From: Candidatus Latescibacterota bacterium
Lineage (GTDB): Bacteria > Latescibacterota > UBA2968 > UBA8231
DNA: 64,000 nt
Direction of reading: 5' to 3'
NCBI GenBank assembly: GCA_965248355.1
Contig: OZ252098.1
Location: 1,390,098-1,454,097 of the forward strand
Shown here: one piece after another, positions 20,665-57,997 of the stretch
How the letters are laid out: each line of letters begins with the position of its first letter
How positions within the stretch are numbered: the first letter of the stretch is position 1
Translations under genes and position numbers: made by a program
Notes under the pieces: model-generated
What the model was told of the DNA's origin: nothing
Database searches by the model: none
Seen by the model: only the letters and a program-made list of their open reading frames with translations

Positions 20665-20689
20665 TTTAGAAGTCCCTATTCCAGGCTCA

Positions 20690-21540: not shown

Positions 21541-21570
21541 TTGGAGGTGATCGATCAGGGTGCTGGCGCG

Positions 21571-22749: not shown

Positions 22750-22846
22750 TCCGTTGGAAAAAGGCGAGGGATGAGGGAGGTACCAACTCCCCTCGTACGG
22801 GTCCTTTACTAGATTAGGCAGGCCACGTACCCAAGGAGCCGGATCG

Positions 22847-37037: not shown

Positions 37038-37879
37038 GGCTCGATGAGCCCGACGCGGCGGGTCGACAGGGCGGTCTCGGTGGAGCCCGGGAAGGGGACG
37101 TCGCTGAAGACGGCGTTGCCGAGCATGATCATGGAGGCTTGGCCGCCGCGCCGGGTCACCTCGTCGACGGCGGCGCGCACCCCTTCGTGGGCCATGAGGC
37201 CGCTGCCGGACGCGAAGGCCCGGGACTCGCGGATGACGCTGCCCAGGTCCAGGGACGGCGCCTCGCGGAGACCCCCCAAGGCGGCCAGGGCCGAGTCGGC
37301 GGCGGCGTTGATCCGCCGGCGGCGCTCCGGGTCGGAGAGGATGTCCCGCGTGCGGATGGGGCCGAAGTGCCGGTAGTGGATGGAGGCCCCGGGGGCCAGG
37401 GGCATGCGCTGGGCCGCGAGGGGGTCTCCGGCGACGAGCTTCACCAGGCAGCCGCCGTGGTACTGGGCGCAGACATCCCCCAGGCCGGTGAGGTTCTCCA
37501 CCTCGGCCACGTGGGCGGCGGTGGCCAGGGCGCGCTCGGACAGCCCCAGGTCGAGCAGGGCGTTGGCCGCGTAGGCCGCGGCCAGCGAAGAAGCTCCGCT
37601 GAGGCCGAAGCCGCTGCTCAGGGGCAGGGGCGTCTCGACGTCGACGGCCAGCCGCTGCCCGGGCGCGACCCGCTCCAGCACGGCCGCCACCGTGGGGAAC
37701 TCGATCTCCTCGCCGTTGAAGGTGATGCCGCCGCCCCCGCGGCGGACCGAGACGGTGGCCCCCTCGCGCACGGTGAAGCCGAGGCCGAGGGAGTGCATCC
37801 GCGCCGGGTCCTCGTGGGGGATCACCTTGAAGACGCCGGAGATGTTTCCCGGCGCGAAGGCGGCCGCCGCCTCAGCCAT
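37034..37879 (-). CDS. GHMP-family small-molecule kinase (pantoate-kinase-like in size and N-terminus)
   Basis: GHMP ATP-binding loop 'PLSSGFGLSGASSLAAA'. N-terminal 'APGNISGVFKV'. 281 aa. Confidence 0.65.
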   Translation of the reverse strand: MAEAAAAFAPGNISGVFKVIPHEDPARMHSLGLGFTVREGATVSVRRGGGGITFNGEEIEFPTVAAVLERVAPGQRLAVDVETPLPLSSGFGLSGASSLAAAYAANALLDLGLSERALATAAHVAEVENLTGLGDVCAQYHGGCLVKLVAGDPLAAQRMPLAPGASIHYRHFGPIRTRDILSDPERRRRINAAADSALAALGGLREAPSLDLGSVIRESRAFASGSGLMAHEGVRAAVDEVTRRGGQASMIMLGNAVFSDVPFPGSTETALSTRRVGLIEP

Positions 37880-38561
37880 GGACGGCCTCCGGCGCCAGCC
37901 GCTGCGCCTGCAGCCAGCCCGGCAACCGGGCGACTCCGTCGAGCAGGGCCAGGGGCGCGTAGGGGGCGAAGGCCGGAGCCCCGGTGGTGCCGCTGAGGAC
38001 GGCCACGAAGCGGATCGCCCCCCGCCGCGCCGCCTCGGCGTCGGGAAGGCTGTCCCCCACGTAGAGGGACTCGGCGGCGTCGACCTGGAGACGGTCCAGG
38101 GCCAGGTGCAGGCAGCCGGGATCCGGCTTGTGCTCGGAGACGTCCTCGGCCCCGATCACGGCCCCCACGAGGTGACGCAACCCCTCCCGGTCGAGGATCC
38201 CCTCGATGCGGTAACGGTACTTGGTGGAGGCGATGGCGCAGGCCAGGCCCCGGGAGCGCAGTTCCTCCAGCACGCCGGGGACGGCGTCGTAGACCACGGT
38301 GCCCGCGGCCATGACCTGGTCGGCGCGCTCGAGGAAGAGCCTTCCGAACTCGACGCTGCGCCCCCGCTCCGCCTCGCCGTTGAGTGCGGCCAGGATGTTG
38401 GGTACGGAAAGGCCGATGGTGCGCCGGATCTCCTCCTCCCCGGACAGGTCGAGGCCCATGCGCCGCTGGGCATAACGCACGCAGTCGATGACGCCCACGG
38501 AGGAGTCCGCCAGGGTGTAGTCGAAGTCGAAGAGGACCGCCTTGAGCGGCGTCAGGCCCAT
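37872..38561 (-). CDS. HAD-superfamily phosphatase (phosphoglycolate-phosphatase-like)
   Basis: Motif I 'LFDFDYTL', 'KPDP' and 'GDSLPD'. Confidence 0.7.
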   Translation of the reverse strand: MGLTPLKAVLFDFDYTLADSSVGVIDCVRYAQRRMGLDLSGEEEIRRTIGLSVPNILAALNGEAERGRSVEFGRLFLERADQVMAAGTVVYDAVPGVLEELRSRGLACAIASTKYRYRIEGILDREGLRHLVGAVIGAEDVSEHKPDPGCLHLALDRLQVDAAESLYVGDSLPDAEAARRGAIRFVAVLSGTTGAPAFAPYAPLALLDGVARLPGWLQAQRLAPEAVHG

Positions 38562-38566
38562 GCCGG

Positions 38567-39379
38567 TCACGCTTCGGCCGGCGAGGCCGTGGCCCCCGCC
38601 TGGGCGCCGGCGTTCACCCCCAGCCCGCGGCGGTAGGCCTCCAGGGGCAGCAGATCCTCGGGGCCCACGTTGCCGATGTTGGCCTGGGGGCCGAAGCGGT
38701 CGATCAGGTCCCGGCGCATGCTGTGCACGTGATGCTCGCTCACCCCGGCGATCCACGGGCCGGGCAGCTCGAACATCACCTTCTCCAGGCCAACGGAGTC
38801 GACGATCCCGTCGATGTCGGCCGCCGTCCCCGCGTCGCCGCGGATCAGCTCCGCCGCCTCCACCAGAAGCAGGCTGGCTCCCGCCTCCATGCACGCCCTG
38901 GCGTCGTCGGCCAGGGGTACGGCGTTGGCCAAGCCTTCCTTCTTGCCCACCTCCCCGAGGACCTTCAGCCCGAACTCCTCTACCGCCCGGACGATGACCC
39001 GCTCCTTCCACCGCAGCGTCACCGGGGCCAGGTTGTCCGAGACCTCCACCCAGCGGTAGCCGGCCTCGACACAGGCCGGGAGGTAGCGTTCCAGGAGGCC
39101 GTGGACCTCGGCGTACTCCAGGAACTGCCCCCCGGGGAAGGGCTCCACGTGCCACGACAGGTAGCGGTCGATCTTCTCCGTCAGCAGCTTCGCCGGGTGC
39201 AGCCGCGAGAGCCCCACGGCGATCTTGGCGAAGTCGAAGCAGTCGGCCCCGACCGCGATCAGGTCCCGCTGCCGGTGCGGCCCGAGGCCCCAGTCGATGA
39301 CCATTGTCAGCCCCGAGGCGCGCGGCTTGGCGGTGCGCTCCGGGGCCAGATGTCCGTCGAGTCCGTCGAAGGGATGCAC
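38567..39379 (-). CDS. comA: (2R)-phospho-3-sulfolactate synthase (ComA family)
   Basis: 'KPRASGLTMVIDWG...DFAKIAVGLS...FPGGQFLEYA...WVEVSDN...VLGEVGKK...VMFELP' follows the ComA family pattern, including the diagnostic 'KPR..GLT.V.D.G' N-terminus and 'EVGKK'. Confidence 0.75.
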   Translation of the reverse strand: MHPFDGLDGHLAPERTAKPRASGLTMVIDWGLGPHRQRDLIAVGADCFDFAKIAVGLSRLHPAKLLTEKIDRYLSWHVEPFPGGQFLEYAEVHGLLERYLPACVEAGYRWVEVSDNLAPVTLRWKERVIVRAVEEFGLKVLGEVGKKEGLANAVPLADDARACMEAGASLLLVEAAELIRGDAGTAADIDGIVDSVGLEKVMFELPGPWIAGVSEHHVHSMRRDLIDRFGPQANIGNVGPEDLLPLEAYRRGLGVNAGAQAGATASPAEA

Positions 39380-39443
39380 TTCGCGGTCCTTCGTGGTGGG
39401 TTTGGAAGCGCGCTAACCTACGAAAAGGCCCCCTACTCCGTCA

Positions 39444-39481
39444 CGGCACTTGCCGCGTTCCCCCGAGGCCCGCGATGTTTC
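39444..39481. promoter_or_regulatory. 38-bp bipartite motif R1 (CGGCACTTGCCGC–N15–GCGATGTTTC). Putative operator/FCB-type promoter (TTG...TAnnTTTG-like) upstream of the helicase gene.
   Basis: A near-palindromic 13-mer plus a conserved 10-mer at fixed spacing. The same architecture recurs at 47087–47124. Confidence 0.4.
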
Positions 39482-39543
39482 TGACCGCCGCGGGCGACCG
39501 AGAGCCCGCCGGCCGGTTCCGGTCCGAGTAGGAATGACCATCC

Positions 39544-42500
39544 ATGGAAACAGGCTCTACTCTCCCATGTCTCTCGCTGGACCTCGAGGTCGGAAAGCAG
39601 GACCGTCGCATCCATGCGTTCGCCGCGATCCGATCGGATACCGACGACCGCCTCGTCTTCAACGGCGGTAACCTCGCCGCAGAACTGGCAAGACTGGACG
39701 ATCTCGCGCACGGTGCCGACTTCCTGCTGGGCCACAACCTGGTCCTCTTCGACCTGCCGCATCTGAAAGCCGCGAAACCCAACCTCCGGCTGTTGCGGTT
39801 GCCGGCGGTGGATACGCTGTGGCTCAATCCCCTCGCCTTTCCGCGTAACCCCTATCACGGTTTGGTCAAGCATTACCAGGACGGACAACTCAAGCGAGGG
39901 CGGCTGAACGATCCCGAACTCGATGCCCGGCTCGCGCTCGACGTCTTTCGTGACCAATGGCGCGCTCTCGGCTCCGCTTCACCGGATCTCTTGCTCGCGT
40001 GGCATTGGTTGACAACGGCGGGCGATATCGGGGACGGCTTCGACAGATTCTTCTCCTCGCTGCGTGAGTCTCCCCGGCCCTCGGACGCGGAAGCCCGCGC
40101 GGCGATAGAGGGACGGTTGGCGGACAGCGCCTGCCGGACCCACGGGCGCGAGGCCACGACAGATCCGGCCCTCTTTGGCTGGGCGCTGGCCTACGCCCTC
40201 GCCTGGCTTTCGGTGGCCGGTGGCAACTCTGTCATGCCGCCGTGGGTACGCCACCAATTCCCCGAGGCGGGACGACTGGTTAGCCGGCTGCGGGATACAG
40301 CTTGTGGAGACTCCGCCTGCGTGTGGTGCCGGGAGCGGCATGACGCCCGCAGGGAACTCTCCCGCTGGTTCGGCTTCAACGGCTTCCGTCCCGAACCTTC
40401 GAGCGCGGACGGAAGCCCGATGCAGCAGTCCATCGTTGAAGCGGCGATGGCCGGGGAGCACGTCCTCGGGATCCTTCCCACCGGCACCGGAAAGTCGCTC
40501 TGCTACCAGATCCCGGCTCTTTCGCGTTACGACAAGACCGGCGCCCTTACAGTGGTGATCTCACCCCTGGTCGCGCTCATGGCGGACCAGGTGGCGGGAC
40601 TGGAAGCACACGGCATCGGGTCGTGTGTCGCCATTAACGGCCTTCTGTCCATGCCCGAGCGGGCCGATGCGCTGGACCGGGTGCGGCTCGGAGACGCCGG
40701 ACTGGTGCTCGTCTCGCCCGAGCAGCTGCGCAGCCAGTCCTTCCGCCGCGTGCTGAACCAGCGCGAGATCGGCGCCTGGGTCATGGACGAAGCCCACTGC
40801 CTGTCGCGATGGGGGCACGACTTCCGACCCGACTACCGCTACGTGGGGCGCTTCATACGCGAGAAGGCGGGATCGGGGCCTGTCCCGCCGGTGTTGTGCC
40901 TCACCGCGACCGCGAAGCCCGATGTCGTCGAGGACATCGCCCGGTACTTCCGAGACTCCATCGGAGCGGAGCTCACAGTCTTCGACGGCGGAGCCCAGCG
41001 CACGAACCTCGAGTTCGTGGTGGTTCCGACCACCGGTGGCGAAAAGTTTTCTCACATCCACCAGATCCTGATGGCTGACCTGCCCCAGGACACGCCCGGC
41101 GGTGCCATCGTCTACTGTGCGACCCGGCGTCAGACCGAAGAGGTGGCGGAGTTTCTGCAGATGAAGGAGATCGCGGCGGACCACTTCCACGCGGGTCTGC
41201 CGCCCGAGACCAAGAAGAGCGTCCAGCTACGCTTCATCGCGGGCGAGCTCCGGGTGATCGCCGCCACCAATGCCTTCGGCATGGGCATCGACAAGCCGGA
41301 CGTGCGGCTGGTGATCCACGCCGACATCCCGGGCTCGCTCGAGAACTACCTGCAGGAGGCGGGGCGCGCCGGGCGGGACCGGGAGACCGCGCGCTGTGTG
41401 CTGTTGTACTCGACGGACGACGTCGAGCGCCAGTTCGGGATGTCCGCCCGGTCGCGCCTCACGCGCCGGGAAATCCACGGCATCCTGCGGGCGCTCCGGA
41501 ACCTCGACCGGAAGAAGCGTCTGAAGGGCGAGGTGGTTGCCACCGCGGGCGAGATCCTCCTGGAGGAGGACGAGAAGGTATTCGAGCGGGACTCAGCCAC
41601 CGACGATACCCGGGTGCGGACCGCCATCGCCTGGTTGGAGGAGGCGGTGCTGCTCACCCGTGAGGAGAACGAGGTGCGGGTGTTTCCCTCGTCCCTTCGG
41701 GTGAGTTCGGTGGAAGAAGCCCGAGCCAAGATCGAGAGCTCGCCCATTGCGGACGCCTACCGCCACCAGTTCCAGCTCATCGCTGAGAAGCTGATCGACG
41801 CCGACCCGGACGAAGGCATCTCCACCGATGAGCTGATGGGCGTGTCTGGCTTGAGCCCCGAAGGTGTACGCGCCGCCCTCTACGACCTGGAGCGCCTCGG
41901 CATCGCGAGGAACGAAACGGCGCTCACCGCCTTCGTCCATACCGGGGTGGAGAGAAGCTCGCTGAAGCGTCTTGACGAGGCGGAGAGTCTTGAGAAGGCA
42001 TTGATCGAGCACCTCCGTCTTGCTGCGCCGGACATGGGTAAGGGTGAGTCCTGGGCTCTGCATTTACGAGTCGCGTCGCAGGTTCTGCGAGATGCTGGGG
42101 TTGTCGATCCTCTTCCCGAGCGGCTATGGCGCATTCTTCGCAGCATTGCCGCTGACGGCCGCGGCGAGGGGGGCGGCTCTGGGAGCCTCGGGATCCGGAA
42201 GCGCGATGCGGAGACCGTGCAGGTAACACTGCAACGCGACTGGCAAGCCCTGGAGGAGACCGCATCGCGGCGCCGTGCGGGGTCGAGACGCCTGCTGGAA
42301 CACCTGCTCGCCGGCCTGTCGCCTGGGAGCCGGGGCACGGATCTCCTGGCCGAGACCACCCTGGGAGAGCTCATGGGCGCGCTAATGTCCGACTTGCTCC
42401 TCAAGAGCAGGCTCAAGAGTCCTGAGAAACTGCTGGACCGAGCTCTCCTGTGGCTGCACGAGCAGGAGGTCATCCGCCTCCACAAGGGTCTCGCGGTCTT

Positions 42501-44748
42501 TCGCCCCGCCATGACCATCCGGCTCACGGACGAGAAGCCGGGGCGGGGATTCGCCACGGCCGACTTCGAGCCGCTCAGACTGCACTACGAGGGGCAGGTT
42601 CGGCAAATCCACGTCATGGTGGAATTCGCGCGGCGGGGTCTGGAGGCCATGGCGGAGGCGCTTCGTCTGGCCATGGAATACTTCGGCATGAACGAGGAGG
42701 AATTCCTGCACCGCTGGCTTCCGGAACGGAGTCGAGAGATCGCCCGCGAGACCACCCCGGAATCGTGGCGGACCATCGTCGAGAGCCTCAAGAACCCCGT
42801 CCAACAGCGGATCGTTGCGGATGATCGAGAGCAGACGAACGTGCTGGTTCTCGCCGGTCCTGGTTCAGGAAAAACGCGGGTGCTGGTGCATCGCATCGCC
42901 TACCTGGTGCGGGCCAGACGCGAGAATCCCCGCGGCATCCTGGCCCTTGCCTACAACCGGCACGCGGCGGTGGAAATTCGGCGGCGCATCTTGGGATTGA
43001 TCGGTGATGAAGCCCGGGGGGTGACCGTGCTCACGTGCCATGCGCTGGCCATGCGACTGGTGGGAGCCAGCTTCCAAGAGCGAGAACGGCGGCGGCTCGA
43101 CGACGATGCATTCCGGGAGGTGTTGCGCCAGGCAGTAGCACTGCTGCGCGGCGAGGGGCTGGAACCGGAGGAAGCGGACGAACAGCGAGAACGACTTCTT
43201 GCGGGCTTCCGCTGGATCCTTGTGGACGAATACCAGGACATCGCTGCGGATCAGTACGAGTTGATATCGGCCCTGGCCGGACGGACTCAGAGAGATGAGG
43301 ATCGCAAGCTCACCCTCTTTGCAGTAGGGGACGACGACCAGAACATCTACGCCTTCAATGGCGCGTCGGTCGAGTTCATCCGCCGCTTCGAAGCGGACTA
43401 CGGTCCGAAGCCCACCTACTTGACCGACAACTACCGCTCCACCGGCCACATCATCGCTGCGGCCAATGCATTGATCGAGCCGGCGCGCGAACGGATGAAG
43501 ACCGGATATCCCATCTGCATAGATCGGCCTCGTGCGAAGAACCCACCGGGCGGCGACTGGCGGGAACTGGACTCGGTCGCTCAAGGCCGTGTGCAGGTTC
43601 TACCAGCGCTACACGATCCGATCATACAAGCGCAGGTTGCGATCACGGAGTTGCAACGCCTCGCTACCCTAGCTCCCGACTGGGACTGGTCCAGGTGCGG
43701 GGTCGTCGCGCGGGAATGGAAGTACCTCGATCCGGTACGTGCATTCTGCGAAGTAAATGGTCTTCCGGTCCAGATGGGAAACGAAGACATCCCGAGCTTC
43801 TGGCTCCTGCGAGACACCCGGACGATGGTCGAATGGCTGCGTGGACGGGATACCTCCTTGGTGAACAGCCCCGACCTCCGTGATTGGGTGAATGCACGTC
43901 CTTCAGGACCCTGGGTCGAGCTTCTTCAGGAGGCTCTGGATGAACATGAGCTTGAAACCGGAGCAGGTGCGGAAGTGAGGGTGGACCCCTTCATCGAGTG
44001 GCTGGCCGAGTGGGGCCGGGAACTTCGTCGCCGCCAGCGCGGGCTCCTGCTGTTGACCGCACATCGCGCCAAGGGATTGGAGTTCGACCACGCGGCCGTG
44101 CTTGACGGAGGCTGGAACAAGATCGACGTCGACAAGGGGGAGGACGAGGACGCGCCAAGACGGCTCTACTACGTGGCCATGACCCGCGCCCGGAAGACCC
44201 TTGCTCTGATTCGATTTCCCGGGCCGCATCGGCTGCTTGATGAATTGCAGGGCAATCCCTCGGTGCTGCAACGAGACGCCGGGTGGCCTGACTTCGCGAG
44301 GGAACCTGAGGCCCCGGCGTATTCGGGGCGATCACGCCCGCACCACGCCCCTGGCGGCTTGCTGCCGGAAACCCTGGAACTCGCGCGTCAATATCGACGG
44401 CCGGGCCTGCGCAGGGTCGATCTGGGATTCGCGGGGCGTCTTCGGCCCAACCATCCGGTGCATCGTGCGATCTCCGCCCTGTCGTCCGGCGATAAGCTGG
44501 AGACACGCGTGACCGAGGCGGGACGTTGGGAATTGCTCGACCTCTCAGGAAGGGTGGTGGGGCGCCTTGCCCGTGACTTCAAACCCCCACCGGGAACGCA
44601 GTGCAGGTCCGCAACAGTTCTGGCCATCATGTCCTGGAGCCGTGACCTGTCGGACTCAAAATACCACGACAGCATACCGTGCGATTCCTGGGAGGTCGTG
44701 GTGCCGGAGTTGGTGTTCGAACCAGTGGCGAGCAACCCGGAAGGTTGA
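39544..44748 (+). CDS. Giant tri-domain nuclease-helicase: DnaQ/DEDDh 3'-5' exonuclease + RecQ-family SF2 helicase + UvrD/PcrA-family SF1 helicase (1734 aa)
   Basis: N-terminal exonuclease 'LDLEVGKQ...FLLGHNLVLFDLPHL'. RecQ motifs 'LGILPTGTGKSLCYQIPAL', 'DEAHCLSRWGHDFRPDY', 'ATNAFGMGIDKPDVRLVIH'. UvrD motifs 'VLAGPGSGKT', 'ILVDEYQD', 'YRST', 'TAHRAKGLEFD', 'YVAMTRAR'. Confidence 0.8.
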   Translation: METGSTLPCLSLDLEVGKQDRRIHAFAAIRSDTDDRLVFNGGNLAAELARLDDLAHGADFLLGHNLVLFDLPHLKAAKPNLRLLRLPAVDTLWLNPLAFPRNPYHGLVKHYQDGQLKRGRLNDPELDARLALDVFRDQWRALGSASPDLLLAWHWLTTAGDIGDGFDRFFSSLRESPRPSDAEARAAIEGRLADSACRTHGREATTDPALFGWALAYALAWLSVAGGNSVMPPWVRHQFPEAGRLVSRLRDTACGDSACVWCRERHDARRELSRWFGFNGFRPEPSSADGSPMQQSIVEAAMAGEHVLGILPTGTGKSLCYQIPALSRYDKTGALTVVISPLVALMADQVAGLEAHGIGSCVAINGLLSMPERADALDRVRLGDAGLVLVSPEQLRSQSFRRVLNQREIGAWVMDEAHCLSRWGHDFRPDYRYVGRFIREKAGSGPVPPVLCLTATAKPDVVEDIARYFRDSIGAELTVFDGGAQRTNLEFVVVPTTGGEKFSHIHQILMADLPQDTPGGAIVYCATRRQTEEVAEFLQMKEIAADHFHAGLPPETKKSVQLRFIAGELRVIAATNAFGMGIDKPDVRLVIHADIPGSLENYLQEAGRAGRDRETARCVLLYSTDDVERQFGMSARSRLTRREIHGILRALRNLDRKKRLKGEVVATAGEILLEEDEKVFERDSATDDTRVRTAIAWLEEAVLLTREENEVRVFPSSLRVSSVEEARAKIESSPIADAYRHQFQLIAEKLIDADPDEGISTDELMGVSGLSPEGVRAALYDLERLGIARNETALTAFVHTGVERSSLKRLDEAESLEKALIEHLRLAAPDMGKGESWALHLRVASQVLRDAGVVDPLPERLWRILRSIAADGRGEGGGSGSLGIRKRDAETVQVTLQRDWQALEETASRRRAGSRRLLEHLLAGLSPGSRGTDLLAETTLGELMGALMSDLLLKSRLKSPEKLLDRALLWLHEQEVIRLHKGLAVFRPAMTIRLTDEKPGRGFATADFEPLRLHYEGQVRQIHVMVEFARRGLEAMAEALRLAMEYFGMNEEEFLHRWLPERSREIARETTPESWRTIVESLKNPVQQRIVADDREQTNVLVLAGPGSGKTRVLVHRIAYLVRARRENPRGILALAYNRHAAVEIRRRILGLIGDEARGVTVLTCHALAMRLVGASFQERERRRLDDDAFREVLRQAVALLRGEGLEPEEADEQRERLLAGFRWILVDEYQDIAADQYELISALAGRTQRDEDRKLTLFAVGDDDQNIYAFNGASVEFIRRFEADYGPKPTYLTDNYRSTGHIIAAANALIEPARERMKTGYPICIDRPRAKNPPGGDWRELDSVAQGRVQVLPALHDPIIQAQVAITELQRLATLAPDWDWSRCGVVAREWKYLDPVRAFCEVNGLPVQMGNEDIPSFWLLRDTRTMVEWLRGRDTSLVNSPDLRDWVNARPSGPWVELLQEALDEHELETGAGAEVRVDPFIEWLAEWGRELRRRQRGLLLLTAHRAKGLEFDHAAVLDGGWNKIDVDKGEDEDAPRRLYYVAMTRARKTLALIRFPGPHRLLDELQGNPSVLQRDAGWPDFAREPEAPAYSGRSRPHHAPGGLLPETLELARQYRRPGLRRVDLGFAGRLRPNHPVHRAISALSSGDKLETRVTEAGRWELLDLSGRVVGRLARDFKPPPGTQCRSATVLAIMSWSRDLSDSKYHDSIPCDSWEVVVPELVFEPVASNPEG

Positions 44749-44899
44749 GCAACGTCTTGCGGAACAGCTGCGGTGCCCCGGTGCCTGCGCTCGGATTCGC
44801 TCAAGCGGCGGCTGCCTCGGGGCGATTTTCCATCCGCCGCCCGCAAAGCTACCTTCCCGGCAGGCGTCTCGACCCGGCGCCGATCCCGAGGAGGCCGCC

Positions 44900-45808
44900 A
44901 TGACCATCACAGCCGACGTTCAGACCCTTCCGCAGCGCATCCTCGGCAAGACCGGCGAGCGCGTCCCCGTCCTCGGCCTCGGCTCGGCCTGCGGAGGACT
45001 GGGCCTGGGCGACGCCGAGGCGATCGAGCTCTACGAGAAGGCCATCGACCGCGGCGTCACCTACATCGACACCGCCCCGGGCTACGAGCGCGCCCAGCGG
45101 CAGCTCGGACACGTGGTGCCCCGCCGCCGCGACGAGCTCTTCCTGGTCACCAAGTCGCCCACCGCCGACGGCGCCGAGGCCGTGCGCCTGCTGGAGCAGA
45201 ACCTGCGCGATCTCGGCACCGACGCCGTGGACCTGTGCTACGTCCACTCCCTGGGCAACTACGACGTCGACCAGGTCCTGGCCCCCGACGGCGCCCTCGC
45301 CGGTTTGCGAGAAGCCCAGAGGCGGGGGCTGACCCGCTACGTCGGCTTCACCGCACATCACAAGACCGGAAGCTCGGAGCGCGTCCTCCGGGAGGCGGAG
45401 GTCGACGTCATCATGGTGGCCCTCAACTTCGTCGACCACCACACCTACGGCTTCGACCGCACCGTGCTGCCCCTGGCCGCCGAACGCAACGTCGGCGTGG
45501 CCGCCATGAAGGTCTACGGCGGCGCCGAGGCGATGGAGTACCAAACGCGGGAGGACGAGGACCAGCGCCCCTCCGCCCTGGAGGCCAGCGCCCCCGCCTT
45601 CGATCACGAACGCGCCCTGCGCTGGGCCCTCGGCCTGCCGGGCGTCAACGTCGCCGTGGTCGGCATGTACTCCGAGGAGGAGCTGGACCGCAACATCGAG
45701 TGGGCCCGCCGCTGGCAGCCGCTGACAGCGGAGGAGGAGGCGCAACTGCTGGAGGAAGGCCGGCGTATCGCCCGCTCCTGGGGCGACCACTACGGGGATA
45801 CCACATGA
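44900..45808 (+). CDS. Aldo/keto reductase-family oxidoreductase
   Basis: 'RILGKTGERVPVLGLGS...' with strong SD 'GAGGAGG' upstream. AKR-like 'IDTAPGY', 'HHKTG'. Confidence 0.7.
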   Translation: MTITADVQTLPQRILGKTGERVPVLGLGSACGGLGLGDAEAIELYEKAIDRGVTYIDTAPGYERAQRQLGHVVPRRRDELFLVTKSPTADGAEAVRLLEQNLRDLGTDAVDLCYVHSLGNYDVDQVLAPDGALAGLREAQRRGLTRYVGFTAHHKTGSSERVLREAEVDVIMVALNFVDHHTYGFDRTVLPLAAERNVGVAAMKVYGGAEAMEYQTREDEDQRPSALEASAPAFDHERALRWALGLPGVNVAVVGMYSEEELDRNIEWARRWQPLTAEEEAQLLEEGRRIARSWGDHYGDTT

Positions 45809-46755
45809 CAACGCCCAAGGGCCAAACAGAACACGCACTGATCGGCGAAGTCGAAAAGCTGATCGATGAAGGAGCGCGGCTCTACGAGAAGGAAACGGAG
45901 GAGTTTCCCCGCCTCCACTTCGACCGGCATCTCTACCAGCCCCTGTTGGTTGAGAAGAGCGACAAGGTAAAGACGGCGCCCCCGGCGTTGAACCAGAGCG
46001 AACAGCGGTTCGTGAAGGATCTGAAAGCCCACTGGAAAGCCGAACGCGACCGATCCCTCGCCGGGATGGAACTGTTCCTCCTGCGGAATCTGAGCCGTGG
46101 GGTCGGCGTTGGCTTCTTTGAGACAAGAGGCTTCTATCCTGACTTCATCCTCTGGATCAAGAAGGGGGAGCAACAGCACATCGTCTTTGTGGAGCCGCAC
46201 GGAATGATCCACGCAGAAGCATACCAGCACGACGACAGGGCCCGGCTTCACGAAAGGCTGGCGGAGTTGACAAGGGAACTCGGCAATGAGAATGTGACCT
46301 TGGACTCCTACATCATTTCCGCAACTCGTTACGACGACCTTCGCAAGAGGTACGACGACGGTTCATGGGACATGGAGAGATTTGCAGGGGCGCATATTCT
46401 GTTTGCGGAAGACTGCTACATCAAGAGGATCTTTCAGGGAGTTTGCCAGGCAAGGCTGCACTTCCCTGAAGACAGAATCGCCGAATTCTGCCGGCGCCAT
46501 CACATCCGGCGCATGGCCCTGTTCGGCTCGGTTCTCCGCGACGACTTCACCTCCGAAAGCGACGTCGATGTGCTGGTGGAGTTCGCGCCCGGCCAAACGC
46601 CGGGACTGGCCTTCATCACCATTCAGGACGAGTTGTCGGAGATATTCGGCCAGCGAGTGGATCTGCACACCTTCAGCGGAATCGAGGGAAGCCGGAACCG
46701 GTTGCTTCGGGAGGAGATTCTCAAGTCTGCGGAGATTCGGTATGAGCAGGCGTGA
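45805..46755 (+). CDS. Fusion of an uncharacterised N-terminal domain (about 200 aa) with a C-terminal MntA-type minimal nucleotidyltransferase (antitoxin-like)
   Basis: C-terminal 'RRMALFGSVLRDDFTSESDVDVLVEF' MNT signature (GS...D.D). The N-terminal part has no recognised motif. ATGA overlap with the AKR stop. Confidence 0.6.
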   Translation: MTTPKGQTEHALIGEVEKLIDEGARLYEKETEEFPRLHFDRHLYQPLLVEKSDKVKTAPPALNQSEQRFVKDLKAHWKAERDRSLAGMELFLLRNLSRGVGVGFFETRGFYPDFILWIKKGEQQHIVFVEPHGMIHAEAYQHDDRARLHERLAELTRELGNENVTLDSYIISATRYDDLRKRYDDGSWDMERFAGAHILFAEDCYIKRIFQGVCQARLHFPEDRIAEFCRRHHIRRMALFGSVLRDDFTSESDVDVLVEFAPGQTPGLAFITIQDELSEIFGQRVDLHTFSGIEGSRNRLLREEILKSAEIRYEQA

Positions 46756-47086
46756 TGACCGGGTAAGCCTGGTCGATATGCTCATCTACGCCAGGGAAGC
46801 CGTCGCCTTGTCCGGGCAGAAAAGTCTGAAGGACCTGGAAAAGGATCGGGTTGTTCAGCTCGCCCTGCAGAAACTGGTGGAGATTGTCGGCGAAGCGGCC
46901 AATCGCGTTTCCCAGGAGACACAGCAAGGTCATCTGGAAATCCCTTGGCCCCAAATCATCGGAATGCGCAACCGCCTGGTTCACGGCTACGATGAGGTCA
47001 ATCTCGAGATCCTGTGGAAGATTGTTGAGACTGACTTCCCTCCACTCATCCAGCAACTGGAAGAGATCGTTGGAGACGAGCCATAG
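46742..47086 (+). CDS. hepT: HepT-like HEPN (DUF86) toxin
   Basis: 'RNRLVHGYDEVNLEILWKIV' R-x4-6-H HEPN motif. Overlaps the MNT gene by 14 bp. Confidence 0.7.
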   Translation: MSRRDDRVSLVDMLIYAREAVALSGQKSLKDLEKDRVVQLALQKLVEIVGEAANRVSQETQQGHLEIPWPQIIGMRNRLVHGYDEVNLEILWKIVETDFPPLIQQLEEIVGDEP

Positions 47087-47124
47087 CGGCACTTGCCGCC
47101 CCGGACCGGGGGCGGCGATGTTTC
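47087..47124. promoter_or_regulatory. 38-bp bipartite motif R2 (copy of R1 architecture) immediately after hepT
   Basis: 'cggcacttgccgc' + 15 nt + 'gcgatgtttc', identical in spacing to R1. Confidence 0.4.
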
Positions 47125-47139
47125 GGGCGAGGGCGATCC

Positions 47140-47594
47140 TACCACCACAAGACCGGAAGCCGGAACGCGTCCTCCGGGAGGCGCAGGTCGACGTCATCAT
47201 CGTAACCCTCAACTTCGACGACCACCACACCTACGGCTTCGACCGCACCGTGCTGCCCCTGGCGGCGGAGCGCAACGTCGGCGTGGCGGCCATGAAGGTC
47301 TACGGCGGCGCCGAGGCGATGGAGTACCGCACCGGTGAGGACGAGGACGGGCGCCCCTCCGCCCTGGAGGCAAACGCGCGGGACTTCGACCACGAGAGAG
47401 CCTTCCGCTGGGCCCTCGGCCTGCTTGGCGTCGGGGTCGCCGTGATCGGCATGTACTCGGAGAAGGAGCTGGACCACAACATCGAGTGGGCCCGCCGCTG
47501 GCAGCCGCTCACGGCGGAGGAGGAGGCGCAATTGCTGGAGGAGGGCCGGCGCATCGCCCGCTCCTGGGGCGACCACTACGGGGACCTGCTGTGA
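47140..47594 (+). pseudogene. Orphan, roughly 90%-identical duplicate of the 3' 455 bp of the AKR gene (45353–45808)
   Basis: Nucleotide and protein alignment: 'RVLREAQVDVIIVTLNFDDHHTYGFDRTVLPLAAERNVGVAAMKVYGGAEAMEY...' vs copy 1 '...REAEVDVIMVALNFVDHHTYGFDRTVLPLAAERNVGVAAMKVYGGAEAMEY...'. No 5' half. Confidence 0.7.
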
Positions 47595-47964: not shown

Positions 47965-48756
47965 CTACGGTAACAGAACTGGCTTCAGATCAAACCTGTT
48001 CCCATCGGTGCTCATTTGATAGAGTGGTATATCGGGCATTTCCTTGAGAAGAGCAAGAACCGTCTCGATGTCTGAACGGGAAGCACGTATACCGAAGGTG
48101 ATGGACCGTACGCGTGCATCCGTACTCTTTTCACGGACGAGTTCTCCGGGCTCTTTTGAAAAGAAAACTAGCCGCCACTCAAGCTCGTACCTCCAGCACG
48201 GAGCTTTCGTGTACAGAATCTTATTCATGAAGCCCACAGGGTCTTCAAAGAAACTGAGATCCTCGGTTATTGGACGCCTGTTACTGTATTCGACCCTCCT
48301 GCATGCACTTCCTCCCAGGTCGTTGTTGGGCGTGCGTTCGTATTCGATACAGATACCCCTGTGGTTGTCGGCGTAGTGAGACCACATAAGCACTTCGAAC
48401 GGCGTAGCACTGAGCGAAGCAACACCACAAGTCCGTATTGCTTCCTGCATCCACGAGAGGGCTTCAATCATCTTCTGTCTCTCGTCATGCACATTGTCAA
48501 CGGTGTAGTTCTCCGGTTCGCCCTTGGATCGTGCGCATTCGTTCAAGTGGGCGGCAATGTCCGCGTCCGAAAATGAAGGCTTGAAGACAGAAAGTGTATC
48601 AAAGGGATCATTGAATGAGCGGGGCTTGGCGAGCCAGAGAATCCCTTTGACCAAGCTCGATATGGAATGTTTGTCAATGGGGCAGTACCTAAACAGTGAA
48701 GTAGGGTTGTCCGAAGAGATTTCCTCTCTTGAAATCAAGACTGCATTCCTCCTCAA
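47965..48756 (-). CDS. DUF2971-family protein (low-GC)
   Basis: 'LMWSHYADNHRGICIEY' DUF2971 signature. GC is about 50% against a 70% background. Confidence 0.5.
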   Translation of the reverse strand: MRRNAVLISREEISSDNPTSLFRYCPIDKHSISSLVKGILWLAKPRSFNDPFDTLSVFKPSFSDADIAAHLNECARSKGEPENYTVDNVHDERQKMIEALSWMQEAIRTCGVASLSATPFEVLMWSHYADNHRGICIEYERTPNNDLGGSACRRVEYSNRRPITEDLSFFEDPVGFMNKILYTKAPCWRYELEWRLVFFSKEPGELVREKSTDARVRSITFGIRASRSDIETVLALLKEMPDIPLYQMSTDGNRFDLKPVLLP

Positions 48757-48831: not shown

Positions 48832-51504
48832 TCAGAACGCCGTCGCCGAGACCGCCTTGGCGATCATCAGCGTGGCGGCGCAGAACATGCCCACCAGGGA
48901 CATGCCCACCCCGAAGCCGACGGCCAGGACCATGGCGTACTGGCGCCACTGCTGGCGGCCGTAGCGCGGCCAGAAGTAGTGCTTGGCGATGAGGGCGCCG
49001 ATGACCTCGGTGAACATGGCGAAGAAGGTCGCCGCGCCCGCCGAGGCCACGCCCCGGATGAAGCCCCAGACGAAGAACATGGGCATGCCGAGGAACCCGA
49101 GGATCGAGTAGAGGCCCAGGCCGAAGACCAGGCCCACGACCATGATGGGCCACTTCACGCCCTTCGTGGGGTGGCCCAGGTCCTCGTCGATCTCGCCGTC
49201 GCCGTCGTCGTCCTTCTGGTTGAGGACCTCCTCGTCGGCCAGGCCGTCGAAGTCCTCGTCGCGGCCGTCGCCCGTCGACTTCGGGTCCTTCCAGAAGATC
49301 TGGAAGAACATGGGGGTCTCCAGCGAGCCCTGGAAGAAGTCGCCCCGGAAGCCGGGATGCGTGTCCAGCTCGAAGAGACAGACCACCTCGCGGTCGTGCC
49401 AGGCCTCCGGCAGGCGCACGCGCAGCATGGTCTCGGCCTGGGCCACCACGCCGCCGTCGGCGGGAGACAGCCGCAGGGGCCGCGGCAGGTCCGGGTTGGT
49501 CCTGCTGTCCGGGGGCGGCTCGAGCAGGACCGGCTGCTGCCGGTCGGCGCCGGCGCCGGGGAAGTCGGTGTAGAAGTACCCCGTCGCCGACCAGGGCCCG
49601 TAGCGCCGCAGCCCGGGATTCTGGATCTGCACCTCGTCGGAGACCCGGACGCGCCAGTAGTAGAGGGAACGGTCCTTCAGGTTGGCCGGGCTCCAGGCCA
49701 CCTCTCCCGGGGGCAGGACGCGGCCCTCCACCTCTTCCCCCGCCTCGTAGGTGAGGCTGTACTGGGTCGCCGAGAACCGCACCGCCTCCTGGAAGGCGCG
49801 GGCGGGCCAGAAGGTCTGCACGTAGGGGTAGGCGTCGGAGGGGATGGGAGCCAGCTTCCACAGGAAGCTCCAGTACATCAGGCTGGCGCCGAGGACGATG
49901 GGCACCATGACCAGCTCCGCCTTCAGCAGGCTGGTGAAGCGCATCCCCGTCAGCTCGATGATGCGGAAGGTCTCGGCGTTGCCGCCGAAGTCGGCCCCCG
50001 CCAGGGGCACGAACCAGATCTCGACGCCGCGGTACCCGGTGAGAAAGACGATCGCCTCGTGCAGGTGCGGGATCTGCACGTTCTGCCCGATCAAGCCGTC
50101 CAACCGCGCCGAGACGAAGGACATGATGGGGGCGTAGACGAAGGCGAGGACCAGCATCACCACCAGGATGCCGGTGGTGACCAGCGACGGGAACAGGGTC
50201 TTGGCCAGGAGGAGGGGATAGGCGGCGGCGAGGAAGAACAGGCTGAGGCAGATCCACACCGGGAAGTCGCCCCGGTTGAGATGCTTCACGCAATAGCCGC
50301 GGATGCGGGACGGCTCATGGCACTCCGGGTGCCGGCAGACGTCGGGGTCGTGGCCTTGGGCCTCCGCCTCGGACCGGTCCTCCCGGTGCTCCCGGGTGCC
50401 GCGCACCACCTGCACCAGGGAGATGATGGTGGTGGCGAAGATGACGCCCAGCCCGAAGGGCTGCCAGAAGTCGACGCCGGCGGTGATCTGCGTCTGCACG
50501 GCGCCCATGCCCGGCACCCAGTGGGGCATGAACCCGTAGTGGTGCAGCAGCGGCGACAGGACGATGAAGGAGACGACCGCGGCGAAGGAGCCCATGACGC
50601 TGTAGAACGGCAGCAGCAGGCCGGCGAAGATCGGCGACAGGCTGAAGCTGATGGCGATCGGCGTGGCCCCGAGGTAGCGCCCCAGGGTCGGGGTGAGGTC
50701 GGCGAAGGGGATGGGCAGGATCGTGACCTTGGTGCCGGCGAAGACCTCGGTGAGGGACGGGATCCCCACGTAGACGAAACCGAAGACGAGGCCGATCGCC
50801 CCCCCCATGGTGAAGCAGGGCCACTTCCAGGTCTGCTTCTCCGAGCCGCTCTCCTCGGCCAGGGCCATGGCCCCGAGGGCGGCCTGGGGCGCCGTGGGGA
50901 AGGGCAGGCGCTCGCGGTCGGAGACCAGCCGGAAGAGGACGTACCCGGAGGTGAACCAGGTGATGCGGCCGACGATGATGCCCAGCACCAGCAGGGCGAT
51001 GGGCAGGGCCCAGTCCATGTGGAGGAAGGTGCGCTGCAGGATCGCCTCGGAGTCGGGCGGCGGCGAGAACCACCCGTACCCGAGCCACTTCAGGCCCACC
51101 AGCTTCTCCGTGAGGCCGAACTGGGCGGCCTCCTGGGAGCCGACGAAGTACTGCCGCCAGATCAGCTGCAGGAAGGTGCCGGTCTCGGCGCGCACGATCA
51201 GCTGCGAGGCGACGTAGGTGAGCAGGAAGATCTCCTGCCGCCTCAGGGTCGTGAAGGAGCGCTTGGCGATCTCCAGGAAGAGGATCACCGTCACCCACTG
51301 GGCCGCGTCGCCGATGCCGATGCCGGTCACCAGCGACAGGTACATCTGGCCCGGGGTCATGATGAAGGCGATGAACAGCACCCCCACCAGGGTCTTGATG
51401 GTGTACCCGTGCTCGAAGCGTTCCGGCGCCTGCAAGAGATCCCGGTATTCGTTGATCTCCTGGTACTGGCGCTCTCGCTTCGTCTGTCGGGATTTTTCCG
51501 CCAT
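48832..51504 (-). CDS. 890-aa polytopic membrane protein (at least 12 TM). Possibly an OPT-superfamily transporter with an inserted cytoplasmic Cys4 zinc-ribbon and a large extracytoplasmic domain.
   Basis: N-terminal 'YTIKTLVGVLFIAFIMTPGQMYLSLVTG' resembles the OPT-family entry motif. 'CRHPECHEPSRIRGYCVKH' is zinc-ribbon-like. Many hydrophobic helices. Confidence 0.45.
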   Translation of the reverse strand: MAEKSRQTKRERQYQEINEYRDLLQAPERFEHGYTIKTLVGVLFIAFIMTPGQMYLSLVTGIGIGDAAQWVTVILFLEIAKRSFTTLRRQEIFLLTYVASQLIVRAETGTFLQLIWRQYFVGSQEAAQFGLTEKLVGLKWLGYGWFSPPPDSEAILQRTFLHMDWALPIALLVLGIIVGRITWFTSGYVLFRLVSDRERLPFPTAPQAALGAMALAEESGSEKQTWKWPCFTMGGAIGLVFGFVYVGIPSLTEVFAGTKVTILPIPFADLTPTLGRYLGATPIAISFSLSPIFAGLLLPFYSVMGSFAAVVSFIVLSPLLHHYGFMPHWVPGMGAVQTQITAGVDFWQPFGLGVIFATTIISLVQVVRGTREHREDRSEAEAQGHDPDVCRHPECHEPSRIRGYCVKHLNRGDFPVWICLSLFFLAAAYPLLLAKTLFPSLVTTGILVVMLVLAFVYAPIMSFVSARLDGLIGQNVQIPHLHEAIVFLTGYRGVEIWFVPLAGADFGGNAETFRIIELTGMRFTSLLKAELVMVPIVLGASLMYWSFLWKLAPIPSDAYPYVQTFWPARAFQEAVRFSATQYSLTYEAGEEVEGRVLPPGEVAWSPANLKDRSLYYWRVRVSDEVQIQNPGLRRYGPWSATGYFYTDFPGAGADRQQPVLLEPPPDSRTNPDLPRPLRLSPADGGVVAQAETMLRVRLPEAWHDREVVCLFELDTHPGFRGDFFQGSLETPMFFQIFWKDPKSTGDGRDEDFDGLADEEVLNQKDDDGDGEIDEDLGHPTKGVKWPIMVVGLVFGLGLYSILGFLGMPMFFVWGFIRGVASAGAATFFAMFTEVIGALIAKHYFWPRYGRQQWRQYAMVLAVGFGVGMSLVGMFCAATLMIAKAVSATAF

Positions 51505-56511: not shown

Positions 56512-57230
56512 GACGCGCCGGTCCGCCTTCGGAAGCAGGCGTCCCAGTCGGCGGTGGGCTCGAAGCCGAGGATGCGGCGCGCCTTCTCGAAGGTGTAGAT
56601 CCCGGGGCCGCGGAAGGAGAGGACGTTGAAGCTCTGGAAGTCGTCCGGGATCTCCTCCGCCTCCAGGGCCAGCCGGCAGATGTGGTGCAGGTCCTGCCAG
56701 ACCACGGTGAAGGCGGGCGCGTCCCGGGGCTCGGCCGCGGGCTCCGGCGCCGGGCCCAGACCGTTGAAGACGAAGTAGGCGGTCTGGATGCCGTGGGCCT
56801 GGGCGAAGACCCGGCAGATCTCGGCGCTCAGCCACTTGGAGAGGACGTAGCAGCCGGTGCCCGGCGCGGCGGGCGCGTCGTCGACGCCGAAGTCGTGATC
56901 GTAGGCCGAGCGCACGGCCTGGGGGCCGGAGTGGATGACCTTGCGGATGCCCAGCTCGGCGGCGGCCTTCATCACGTGCCAGGCGCCGGCGGTGTTGACG
57001 TCGAAGCTGTCCACGGGGTGCTCGCGCACGACCGTGAAGTTCATGATCGCGTCCATGCCCCGGGCCGCCTCCAGCACCTGCTCGTAGGAGCGCACGTCCA
57101 CCCTCTCCACAGGGCGGCCCTCCGGGTGGTCCTGCACGTCGGTGAGGCGCAGCTCGTAGTCCTTCTCCAGGCCCGGGGTGAGATAGGGCCCGACCAGACC
57201 GGAGGCGCCCAGGAAAAGGATCTTCTTCAT
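56508..57230 (-). CDS. NAD(P)-binding epimerase/dehydratase-like (atypical short SDR) protein
   Basis: 'MKKILFLGASGLVGPYL' Rossmann motif. About 240 aa. Confidence 0.55.
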   Translation of the reverse strand: MKKILFLGASGLVGPYLTPGLEKDYELRLTDVQDHPEGRPVERVDVRSYEQVLEAARGMDAIMNFTVVREHPVDSFDVNTAGAWHVMKAAAELGIRKVIHSGPQAVRSAYDHDFGVDDAPAAPGTGCYVLSKWLSAEICRVFAQAHGIQTAYFVFNGLGPAPEPAAEPRDAPAFTVVWQDLHHICRLALEAEEIPDDFQSFNVLSFRGPGIYTFEKARRILGFEPTADWDACFRRRTGAS

Positions 57231-57997
57231 GCGCCGGCTCCGGCCGCCCACTGGCGGTGGAAGTCGTGCCGGGGCTCGAAGCCCATCTCGCGAATACCGT
57301 CGAGGAGGAACTTCGGGTGCGGGGGCTGATGGCAGACGTGCCGCACCTGCCAGCGCCCCACCCAGTTGCGGGACCCCGCCCGGTCCCGGCCCAGGGCCAG
57401 CTCCACGGCGGCGGCCGCATCCCGCGGATCGAGCCAGGTCAGGTCCGGTTCGGTGCCCTCGGCGACTTCGTCCTCGCGGGCCAGGCGTCCCAGCCGCAGC
57501 ACGGTGACGGTGACGGCGTGGTCGCGGGCGAACTCCCGGGTGACCTGCTCGGCCAGGTGATACGCCAGGCGACTCATGGCCGTCCCCGGCCGCGGACGCT
57601 GTTGCTCGGAGACGTACACGTCGTCCGGGACCTCGTGGAACACCTCCAGGGAGCTGCAGTAGACGAGGCGCGACACACCCGACTCGACTGCGGCCTGCAG
57701 CAGGGCGCGGGTCCCGCGCGTGGCCCGGTCGAGGAGGGCGCGCTCGCACTCGTAGGAATCGGCGGGCGGAAGAGCGGGAGGCCCGGCCGGGCCGGTATGG
57801 ACGATGGCGTCGACCCCGGCCACCGCGAGGCAGGCGCCGTCGGCATCGTACAGGTCGGCGTCGACGACCTCGAGGCCGGAGGCGTCCGGTGCTTCGGCGC
57901 CCGGGGGGCGGGCGACCCGGAGCCGGTGATCCCCGGAGAGCCTGTCCAGGAGGACGCGGCCCATGCGGCTCGTACCCTCGGATACAAGAATCCGCAT
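57227..57997 (-). CDS. NAD(P)-binding domain protein (NmrA/epimerase-like)
   Basis: 'MRILVSEGTSRMGRVLLDRL' Rossmann-like N-terminus. ATGA coupling to the downstream gene. Confidence 0.5.
   Translation of the reverse strand: MRILVSEGTSRMGRVLLDRLSGDHRLRVARPPGAEAPDASGLEVVDADLYDADGACLAVAGVDAIVHTGPAGPPALPPADSYECERALLDRATRGTRALLQAAVESGVSRLVYCSSLEVFHEVPDDVYVSEQQRPRPGTAMSRLAYHLAEQVTREFARDHAVTVTVLRLGRLAREDEVAEGTEPDLTWLDPRDAAAAVELALGRDRAGSRNWVGRWQVRHVCHQPPHPKFLLDGIREMGFEPRHDFHRQWAAGAGA

Follow-up and report, generated by a model that had tools for sequence, protein, structure and literature searches.

Whether an exonuclease-type domain, a RecQ motor and a UvrD motor can be joined in a single bacterial polypeptide, and what such a protein would do, are the questions raised by an open reading frame (ORF) in contig OZ252098.1 of assembly GCA_965248355.1 (Candidatus Latescibacterota bacterium). 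The stretch analyzed, termed the window, comprised the 64,000 nucleotides (nt) at positions 1,390,098-1,454,097 of this contig. The ORF runs from an ATG at 39544 to a stop codon at 44746-44748, contains zero internal stops and encodes 1734 amino acids. A preliminary description of the window had proposed that this ORF joins exonuclease-fold, RecQ and UvrD domains, and the translation (which contains DEAHCLSRWGHDFRPDY, AGPGSGKT, VDEYQD and TAHRAKGLEFD, the motifs quoted at the time) and the Pfam matches bore this out. Six modules were distinguished within the protein; the gene and its modules, including superfamily 2 (SF2) and superfamily 1A (SF1A) motors, were located as follows.

39544 to 44748, plus strand: complete fusion gene, stop codon included (ORF list, translation, homologues)
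39544 to 39978, plus strand: DnaQ-fold 3'-5' exonuclease-like domain, residues 1-145 (PDB profile matches, AlphaFold2 model, Foldseek, column counts)
39979 to 40353, plus strand: helical module with four invariant Cys residues, residues 146-270 (AlphaFold2 secondary structure, Cys columns)
40354 to 41433, plus strand: RecQ-family SF2 motor core, residues 271-630 (Pfam, TIGR00614, PDB, invariant motif residues)
41434 to 42783, plus strand: linker of several predicted winged-helix domains, residues 631-1080 (predicted structure)
42784 to 44223, plus strand: UvrD/PcrA/Rep-type SF1A motor, residues 1081-1560 (Pfam, PDB, invariant motifs)
44224 to 44745, plus strand: variable C-terminal domain, residues 1561-1734, with a lineage-specific insertion at about residues 1580-1600 (poor conservation)

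The fusion ORF is real and intact and encodes one polypeptide. The closest protein was 99% identical, and more than 120 other 90%-identity clusters matched over the full length at 73-85% identity. A single unbroken tblastn match to the whole protein was obtained in 76 of the 81 loci retrieved from genome collections, while in-frame stops were detected within an otherwise colinear match in seven loci. The helicase gene of a sister strain (locus L085) matched it in length and differed at 29 of 5,205 nt (99.44% identity). Conservation was assessed by counting alignment columns in 97 divergent family members of 34-71% identity, among which all ATPase motifs were invariant. Ratios of nonsynonymous to synonymous substitution rates (dN/dS) ranged from 0.10 to 0.29 for 12 pairs of genes with dS values of 0.15-0.55, these pairs being more distant than the window and L085 copies, which differ at only 29 nt. 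The low dN/dS values indicated that the gene is functional, and we conclude with high confidence that its product is a functional enzyme which stands alone, is exchanged horizontally and possesses a DEDD-fold domain, two intact motors driven by ATP and a predicted winged-helix DNA-binding array.

A few relatives are split, and these are decayed copies because the stop codons and frameshifts lie within otherwise colinear matches. The copy in Rhizobium TA1 has a frameshift near residue 800, and that of Nostoc punctiforme pNPUN02 (L082:5800-10818) is annotated as three coding sequences (CDS) and contains two stop codons. A Rosetta-stone reading of the three adjoining Nostoc CDS was rejected, as they constitute a single decayed copy. 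The name '3'-5' exonuclease' applied by the NCBI annotation pipeline PGAP sits on the UvrD_C fragment of this copy and is potentially misleading. The Nostoc copy also adjoins an ISNCY transposase, a helicase-related gene and an N-6 DNA methylase gene.

Pfam matched the DEAD, Helicase_C, UvrD-helicase and UvrD_C families, as foreseen in the preliminary description, but neither RNase_T nor RQC, and returned nothing for residues 1-279, 633-1079 and 1553-1734, even at E = 10. No Pfam exonuclease model, RNase_T included, matched the N-terminal domain. A profile built from 32 divergent members and compared with the PDB nevertheless identified a TREX1-homologue-like "exodeoxyribonuclease III" (E = 3e-5) and the exonuclease of Staphylococcus aureus DinG (E = 5e-5). 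The AlphaFold model of this domain had a mean confidence score (pLDDT) of 91.7, and Foldseek matched it with a probability of 1.00 to the S. aureus DinG exonuclease, the T7 DNA polymerase exonuclease, a Cas2-DnaQ domain and RNase T, with the Pol III epsilon subunit also among the matches. An RNase H-like exonuclease fold and the four acidic residues of Exo motifs I-III place the domain in the DnaQ-like (DEDD) superfamily, the carboxylates D13, E15, D70 and D127 being retained in 91-96 of the 97 members.

The preliminary description had assigned this domain to the DEDDh exonucleases, and that assignment failed. Residue 122, which occupies the position of the DEDDh histidine and faces the catalytic His of DinG as Asn122 in the alignment, was N in 77 members, S in 8, P in 7, Q in 1 and G in 1, and was H in none, so that the catalytic His of the H-x4-D motif, expected four or five residues ahead of the last Asp, is absent from all 97. 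As this residue is never His, the N-terminal domain is a DEDD-fold domain and not a DEDDh enzyme. Three other residues, H64, H105 and K109, were kept in 95-96 of the 97 members and could stand in for the missing catalytic histidine.

The helical module that follows contains four cysteines, C197, C254, C259 and C262, each kept in 95-97 of the 97 members, which presumably form a putative zinc site. Beyond this module lies the first motor. Pfam detected DEAD at residues 292-464 (1.3e-29) and Helicase_C at residues 501-612, and the NCBIfam model TIGR00614 (recQ_fam) gave 306.4 bits against a cut-off of 219.8, placing the motor in the RecQ family. Motif 0 (FGFNGFRP...Q), GxGKS, DEAH, the aromatic loop HDFRPDY and motif VI were all found in the translation, with K317, D415 and E416 invariant. 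The best PDB matches were the RecQ cores 4tmu and 1oyw. Alignments to RecQ, BLM and WRN structures did not extend beyond the second RecA lobe, after which the zinc and winged-helix domains of those proteins start, and no Pfam match to RQC, HRDC or RecQ_Zn_bind was detected in the fusion protein. Scores for canonical bacterial RecQ fell short (TIGR01389, 339 bits versus 640; PRK11057, 262 versus 1015). Hence the earlier claim of a complete RecQ core with a DEAH box held for the SF2 motor core, but only for that core, which lacks RQC, HRDC and the RecQ zinc domain.

The two motors are separated by a linker of approximately 450 residues, for which the predicted fold (pLDDT 85.6) consisted of repeated helix-helix-helix-strand-strand units. 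On this model the linker is probably an array of winged-helix domains. Foldseek gave no significant global match, the best being RPC62 (probability 0.35; template modeling [TM] score 0.12), and profiles of the linker and of the C-terminal region identified nothing in the PDB.

The second motor was described previously as a complete UvrD/PcrA SF1 helicase, and all of the expected motifs were indeed present: GPGSGKT, DEYQD, GDDDQ, YRS, HRAKGLEFD and YVAMTRAR, with every SF1 motif invariant in the 97 members. Pfam scores exceeded the gathering values for UvrD-helicase (7.5e-41; 141 bits versus 23) and UvrD_C (42.6 versus 25.6), AAA_19 was also matched, and UvrD_C/UvrD_C_2 lay at residues 1502-1556. 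These scores, the motifs and PDB matches to UvrD, PcrA and Rep identify an SF1A motor of the UvrD/PcrA/Rep type. It is not an orthologue of any of these three enzymes according to the NCBIfam equivalog models (uvrD, 157 versus 1144; pcrA, 162 versus 911; rep, 132 versus 951). No PDB chain spanning both motors was found. The C-terminal residues, about 170 in number, were poorly conserved across the wider family.

How far, then, does the protein resemble systems that have been characterized? The preliminary description had called it WRN-like. An N-terminal 3'-5' exonuclease fold followed by a RecQ motor in one chain is indeed shared with WRN, and the RecQ core aligns with that of WRN at about E = 1e-50, but it is the only part that does. 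The exonuclease of WRN is of the RNase D/DEDDy type whereas that of the fusion is DinG/TREX-like within the DnaQ group and has no His or Tyr as its catalytic residue; WRN possesses RQC and HRDC domains, which were undetected in the fusion, and has no SF1 helicase. Thus, the similarity to WRN is one of convergent layout, not of orthology, and the label holds for the layout but not for the exonuclease type, the catalytic His, RQC or HRDC. Among solved structures, the DnaQ-like domain of firmicute DinG (S. aureus and Bacillus subtilis; 8zef/9ii8), likewise fused to an SF2 helicase, is the nearest relative of the N-terminal domain. The DinG helicase, however, is XPD-like, with the fold of the Fe-S-type 5'->3' family rather than that of RecQ, its exonuclease is a canonical DEDDh enzyme with the His, and it has neither a UvrD module nor a winged-helix array.

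Compared with Escherichia coli RecQ and UvrD (and PcrA and Rep), the motor cores of the fusion score above the recQ_fam, Pfam UvrD-helicase and UvrD_C cut-offs but below the equivalog cut-offs, lack the zinc, winged-helix and HRDC domains of RecQ, and are covalently joined. RecBCD, AddAB and AdnAB also combine two helicase-type motors and a nuclease in one machine for processing DNA ends. These are multisubunit complexes, however, in which all motors belong to SF1 (those of RecBCD being opposite in polarity) and the nucleases are of the PD-(D/E)xK type, in contrast to the SF2 and SF1A motors of the same expected polarity and the DnaQ-fold domain present in the single chain of the fusion. Nhi and Hna are single-protein helicase-nucleases, and the fusion is likewise a stand-alone protein of helicase and nuclease type. 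The four extended winged helices of RPC62 recall the predicted winged-helix string of the linker, to which RPC62 was the best, if weak, Foldseek match; as this match was not significant globally and there was no sequence similarity, the likeness is one of analogy only.

The family was surveyed by querying 1.84 billion 50%-identity representatives with residues 1-1100. The best 150 representatives all had E values of <=1e-138, 96 of them were 1560-1900 residues long, and most aligned over approximately residues 10-1100 in one nearly gap-free stretch. At least 96 full-length 50%-identity clusters had the fusion architecture, with identities down to 34%, and the family is old and is larger than the 150 representatives listed. 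An exact look-up of the window protein in the contig index gave no match. At least 80 genome loci with the fusion were located in more than ten phyla. Carriers included Latescibacterota, Acidobacteriota, Gemmatimonadota, Chloroflexota, Thermodesulfobacteriota and Binatia, Spirochaetia, Nitrospinota, Poribacteria, Actinomycetota (Acidimicrobiia), Cyanobacteria and Alpha-, Beta- and Gammaproteobacteria. Many were sponge-associated metagenome-assembled genomes, for which sampling may account. Most copies were on multi-megabase chromosomal contigs; copies covering at least 80% of the protein were also present on 22 plasmids or chromids, including Thiothrix pTfr153 and replicons of Rhizobium, Cereibacter and Allochromatium. 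On pTfr153 of Thiothrix fructosivorans (L083:17381-21070), where the helicase was 65% identical to the window protein, a WYL-domain gene and a type I-D CRISPR-Cas cluster (Cas6, Cas7d) lay at a distance of about 4 kb from the helicase gene, and a separate small '3'-5' exonuclease' gene lay 1.5 kb from it. A phage origin was rejected, the architecture being found in 0 of 50,697 phage records.

These proteins are annotated by NCBI/PGAP only as "RecQ family ATP-dependent DNA helicase," no family-specific NCBIfam or PADLOC model was found, and literature searches found no published description of the architecture or the family. The domains of the fusion are known ones, while their architecture is absent from characterized proteins and the family is unstudied. 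The description of the fusion as highly unusual was accurate with respect to characterized proteins but not with respect to nature, where it forms a large family distributed over many phyla; it is both widespread and annotated, although the annotation is a generic RecQ name rather than that of a known repair factor.

Several pairs of loci provided indications of recent transfer. Near-identical copies (81-94% DNA identity) were detected in L008, L009, L018, L013 and L004, which are assigned to different phyla or orders. Copies in a member of the Vicinamibacterales (L008, 7.28-Mb contig) and a member of the Spirochaetia (L009, 7.03-Mb chromosome) exhibited 94.1% DNA identity over 5,102 nt, with dissimilar flanks, in a DNA comparison that located the following segments.

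L008:7982-13083 and L009:7979-13077: near-identical copies of the fusion gene in two phyla

In L009, the shared stretch begins about 15 nt downstream of the start of the ORF; in L008, whose ORF is longer, the offset is about 65 nt. At its other end the stretch reaches to within about 10-25 nt of the stop codon. The same pattern, with similarity confined to the gene, was observed for L008/L018, L009/L018, L018/L013 and L004/L008, and neither repeats nor mobility genes were visible at the boundaries of the near-identical copies. A leader of about 70 nt containing 'GCAACCTGA' was common to L004:55-165, L018:7890-8000 and L008:7890-7920, upstream of the gene; the motif GCAACCTGA was absent upstream of the window copy. 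The sharing of this short upstream leader by some loci suggests that the gene may travel with its own 5' region. In the syntenic pairs L007/L011 and L061/L075, the helicase genes were 84-85% identical versus 88-94% for the flanks, a greater divergence that could be due to allele replacement or to faster evolution. In the window, the G+C content at third codon positions (GC3) of the fusion gene was 0.77 versus 0.94-0.96 in flanking core genes, confirming the slightly reduced GC noted previously. Judging from these sequence comparisons, the fusion gene is accessory and mobile between phyla, and its transfer is recent.

No conserved partner gene was found by clustering of ORFs, by Pfam analysis of 149 immediate neighbors or by tblastx of 400-nt flanks for small ORFs and RNAs. 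When ORFs of at least 70 residues within 6 kb were clustered, the commonest neighbor family occurred in only 6 of 82 loci. The 149 immediate neighbors included PIN (4), HNH (3-5), DUF4143/AAA_14 (3), reverse transcriptase (2) and MNT (2) proteins, the rest being housekeeping, and the 400-nt flanks were alike in 9-10 of approximately 2,278 locus pairs, all of them close relatives. PADLOC matched 95 families among the 149 immediate neighbors versus 47 families among 124 proteins 5-8 kb away, which is not clearly more frequent and is without a genome-wide baseline. There was no linkage to relaxase, replication or integrase genes. Regulation by the SOS response was not supported, as LexA boxes of the gamma/beta, alpha and Cheo types were not enriched upstream of 71 loci relative to intragenic controls; a scan for sigma-70-type promoters and intrinsic terminators around the gene yielded nothing useful. 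The absence of shared neighbors, the heterogeneity of those present and the dissimilarity of the flanks indicate that the enzyme works alone.

In the window, the genes upstream of the fusion are core cofactor-biosynthesis genes (ComA-like, GHMP kinase, PPS_PS). The features of the intergenic region and of the downstream side were as follows.

39444 to 39481, plus strand: first copy of a 38-bp repeat, between the ComA-like and helicase genes (the only copy in L085)
44900 to 45808, plus strand: complete aldo-keto reductase gene, 302 amino acids, directly downstream (Pfam Aldo_ket_red, 4.2e-26)
45811 to 46479, plus strand: C-terminal remnant of a type III restriction enzyme (Res) without its own start codon (PADLOC REase_III, 3.7e-15)
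46513 to 47086, plus strand: MNT/HepT toxin-antitoxin pair, the MNT gene possibly truncated at its 5' end and HepT at 46742-47086 (NTP_transf_2, 4e-12; HepT-like, 1.9e-23)
47087 to 47124, plus strand: second copy of the 38-bp repeat, immediately behind the HepT stop codon and adjoining the truncated reductase copy (absent here in L085)
47118 to 47594, plus strand: second, truncated aldo-keto reductase copy (90.7% identity to the first)
47965 to 48756, minus strand: DUF2971 gene (Pfam DUF2971, 6.7e-8; PADLOC candidate PDC-S31, 6.7e-53, full length)

The toxin-antitoxin cassette and the DUF2971 gene had been reported as neighbors in the preliminary description, and both were confirmed by Pfam; the MNT protein additionally matched PADLOC PDC-S09. 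The Res remnant is a 223-codon open stretch corresponding to profile positions 946-1124 of 1154. It had no counterpart in L085 (window positions 45818-46469) and seems to have removed the 5' end of the MNT gene. Around MNT/HepT the reductase gene is duplicated (45356-45798 versus 47143-47584, 90.7% identical over 441 aligned nt). The second copy was full length in L085, where a different gene occupied the position of the DUF2971 gene. Because L085 differs in this region and, in the window, the Res remnant, the MNT/HepT pair and the PDC-S31 gene lie beside the fusion gene, the downstream patch is strain variable and defense flavored. The 38-bp repeat, earlier thought to bracket the gene, is real, with two copies in the window versus none in 100 shuffles. 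It does not mark a mobile unit, however, as the sister strain carries the same gene with one copy only, and the repeats were rejected as island ends as a general feature. The distal genes of L085 and the window were 99.4-99.6% identical. Identity was 95.5% on the ComA-like side (37283-39543 versus L085:1-2242), 97.6% for the reductase and 99.4-99.6% for the helicase and distal genes, a pattern which suggests that a recombination tract may lie next to the helicase gene. A 22-nt inverted repeat, 91% complementary, was observed between 42277-42298, inside the helicase gene, and 44857-44878, intergenic and immediately before the reductase gene, maybe by chance.

What the enzyme does may be considered on the basis of these data. 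Both motors would be expected, from the properties of the RecQ and UvrD families, to translocate 3'->5' on single-stranded DNA. If both were bound to one strand, they might act as a tandem engine, with UvrD stripping proteins and RecQ unwinding; if each instead occupied one of the antiparallel strands at a nick, gap or branch, they could pull against each other's direction and thereby open the duplex to both sides. The duplex or branch point may be held by the winged-helix array, and the N-terminal domain might trim or grip the freed 3' end. We tentatively propose that the fusion enzyme is a lone accessory guard that unwinds and degrades foreign or aberrant DNA with 3' ends or nicks, a single-gene defense-type function whose likelihood we place just below even. 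The mobility of the gene, the turnover of its alleles, the occurrence of pseudogenes and the local context favor a defense-type role, which is only slightly favored over an accessory role in repair. A more far-reaching version, which we consider rather unlikely, is that the family represents a new class of single-gene immune or DNA surveillance system, in which SF2 and SF1 motors on opposite strands and a His-less DEDD nuclease would destroy invading DNA at nicks and 3' ends, and in which an ORF with a short leader would hop between phyla.

Several observations weigh against the proposal of a lone guard. Most neighbors across loci are housekeeping genes, and the rate of PADLOC matches beside the gene, for which there is no genome-wide baseline, is similar to that 5-8 kb away. 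The role in defense or DNA surveillance suggested in the preliminary description is plausible and was in keeping with the defense-type or variable local patch, but it drew no support from this rate or from a conserved partner gene. The protein itself matched three defense models in PADLOC (DpdF, 2.4e-113; PsyrT, 1.4e-90; GajB, 6.5e-49), but the matches covered only generic RecQ or UvrD cores, and the dpd cluster and the PsyrA and GajA partners were absent nearby. For DpdF, the NCBIfam score was 197 bits versus 550 and there were no conserved neighbors in 82 loci. The PsyrT model matched only residues 292-664, with no conserved adjoining gene and with flanks that were unrelated between loci, and the GajB models matched the UvrD core only, again with no conserved partner; assignment to Dpd, PsyrTA or Gabija thus failed. 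Exonuclease activity of the N-terminal domain is uncertain in the absence of the catalytic His, the polarity and cooperation of the motors are drawn by analogy from family properties only, and a near gap-free architecture retained down to 34% identity under purifying selection would fit a cellular maintenance enzyme equally well.

An accessory enzyme of DNA repair or fork processing, which would unite in one chain equivalents of the activities of RecQ, UvrD and a 3' exonuclease, is a credible alternative on the improbable side. Such an enzyme would clear blocked forks, R-loops, D-loops and protein roadblocks from the host chromosome and would be patchily distributed, like other optional repair genes. 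Purifying selection (dN/dS, 0.10-0.29), the retention of the architecture and of all catalytic motifs to 34% identity, the predominance of housekeeping neighbors and the lack of anything specifically defense-like that matches the protein itself are all consistent with this role, as is the synteny of the locus within some clades, for example, in Latescibacterota loci L001, L010 and L019. The exonuclease of DinG, the closest structural relative of the N-terminal domain, has moreover been implicated in replication stress (PMC12525004). A repair function is harder to reconcile with the lack of SOS box enrichment upstream of the 71 loci, the very recent transfer of exactly the ORF between phyla, the faster divergence of the gene than of its flanks in syntenic genomes, the existence of pseudogenes, and the position of the window copy among defense-type genes in a strain-variable patch.

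The guard proposal allows for trimming by the N-terminal domain, but this domain may instead be a noncatalytic sensor, binding 3' ends or metal and loading or regulating the motors, in which case the protein would be a pure double helicase. Divergent members have Asn, Ser or Pro where DEDDh enzymes have their general-base His, and the Pfam exonuclease models failed to recognize the domain; both observations point in this direction. Retention of the DEDD carboxylates and of H64, H105 and K109 in nearly all members is hard to explain without metal-dependent chemistry, however, and the fold clearly matches active exonucleases; we regard a sensor as doubtful. It is quite improbable that the gene is cargo of plasmids or other mobile elements that serves the element in replication, in the processing of transferred DNA or in countering host defenses. 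The 22 plasmids and chromids and the movement between phyla would accord with such a function, but most of the carrier replicons are very large or are chromids, most were typed as nonmobilizable, the majority of copies lie in multi-megabase chromosomal contigs, the gene is unlinked to relaxase, replication or integrase genes, and no phage record contains the architecture. The likelihood that the fusion is an assembly chimera or a masked sequencing frameshift, with exonuclease, recQ and uvrD truly separate genes, is virtually nil and this explanation was rejected: the length of the gene is unusual and a few relatives are split, but the same unbroken architecture recurs in 76 of 81 independent loci and on finished plasmids, the L085 copy is of equal length, and the split relatives are decayed.

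Some features elsewhere in the window were also recorded. A second low-GC island at 10000-23600 (GC content, 0.53-0.62 versus approximately 0.72) encodes, on the minus strand, tetratricopeptide repeat (TPR) and leucine-rich repeat (LRR) plus PD40 beta-propeller proteins, a DsbA-like thioredoxin, glycosyltransferases and a glycosyltransferase-transglutaminase fusion, and ends in two transposase genes (DDE_3/IS630-like, 21658-22740; DUF772, 22847-23548). An ORF of 1908 residues (51694-57420, minus strand) had matches only to Peptidase_M28 and a C-terminal FtsX-like permease, and an ORF of 890 residues beside it (48832-51504, minus strand) had no significant family match.

Fusions of helicases and nucleases are central to repair, as in WRN, DinG and RecBCD, and to many recently found immune systems, yet no characterized protein in which a RecQ motor is covalently joined to a UvrD motor was found. 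Members of the family described here are under purifying selection and retain the two ATPase sites as well as the DEDD carboxylates, and the gene passes from phylum to phylum by itself. The family offers a natural test of how two motors of the same polarity and of different superfamilies cooperate on one substrate and, for the DEDD fold, a test of whether the usual general base is dispensable. If the gene functions in defense, a widespread single-gene system would be added to catalogues that currently record only a "RecQ family helicase"; if it is a repair enzyme, it would represent an unrecognized pathway in many environmental bacteria.

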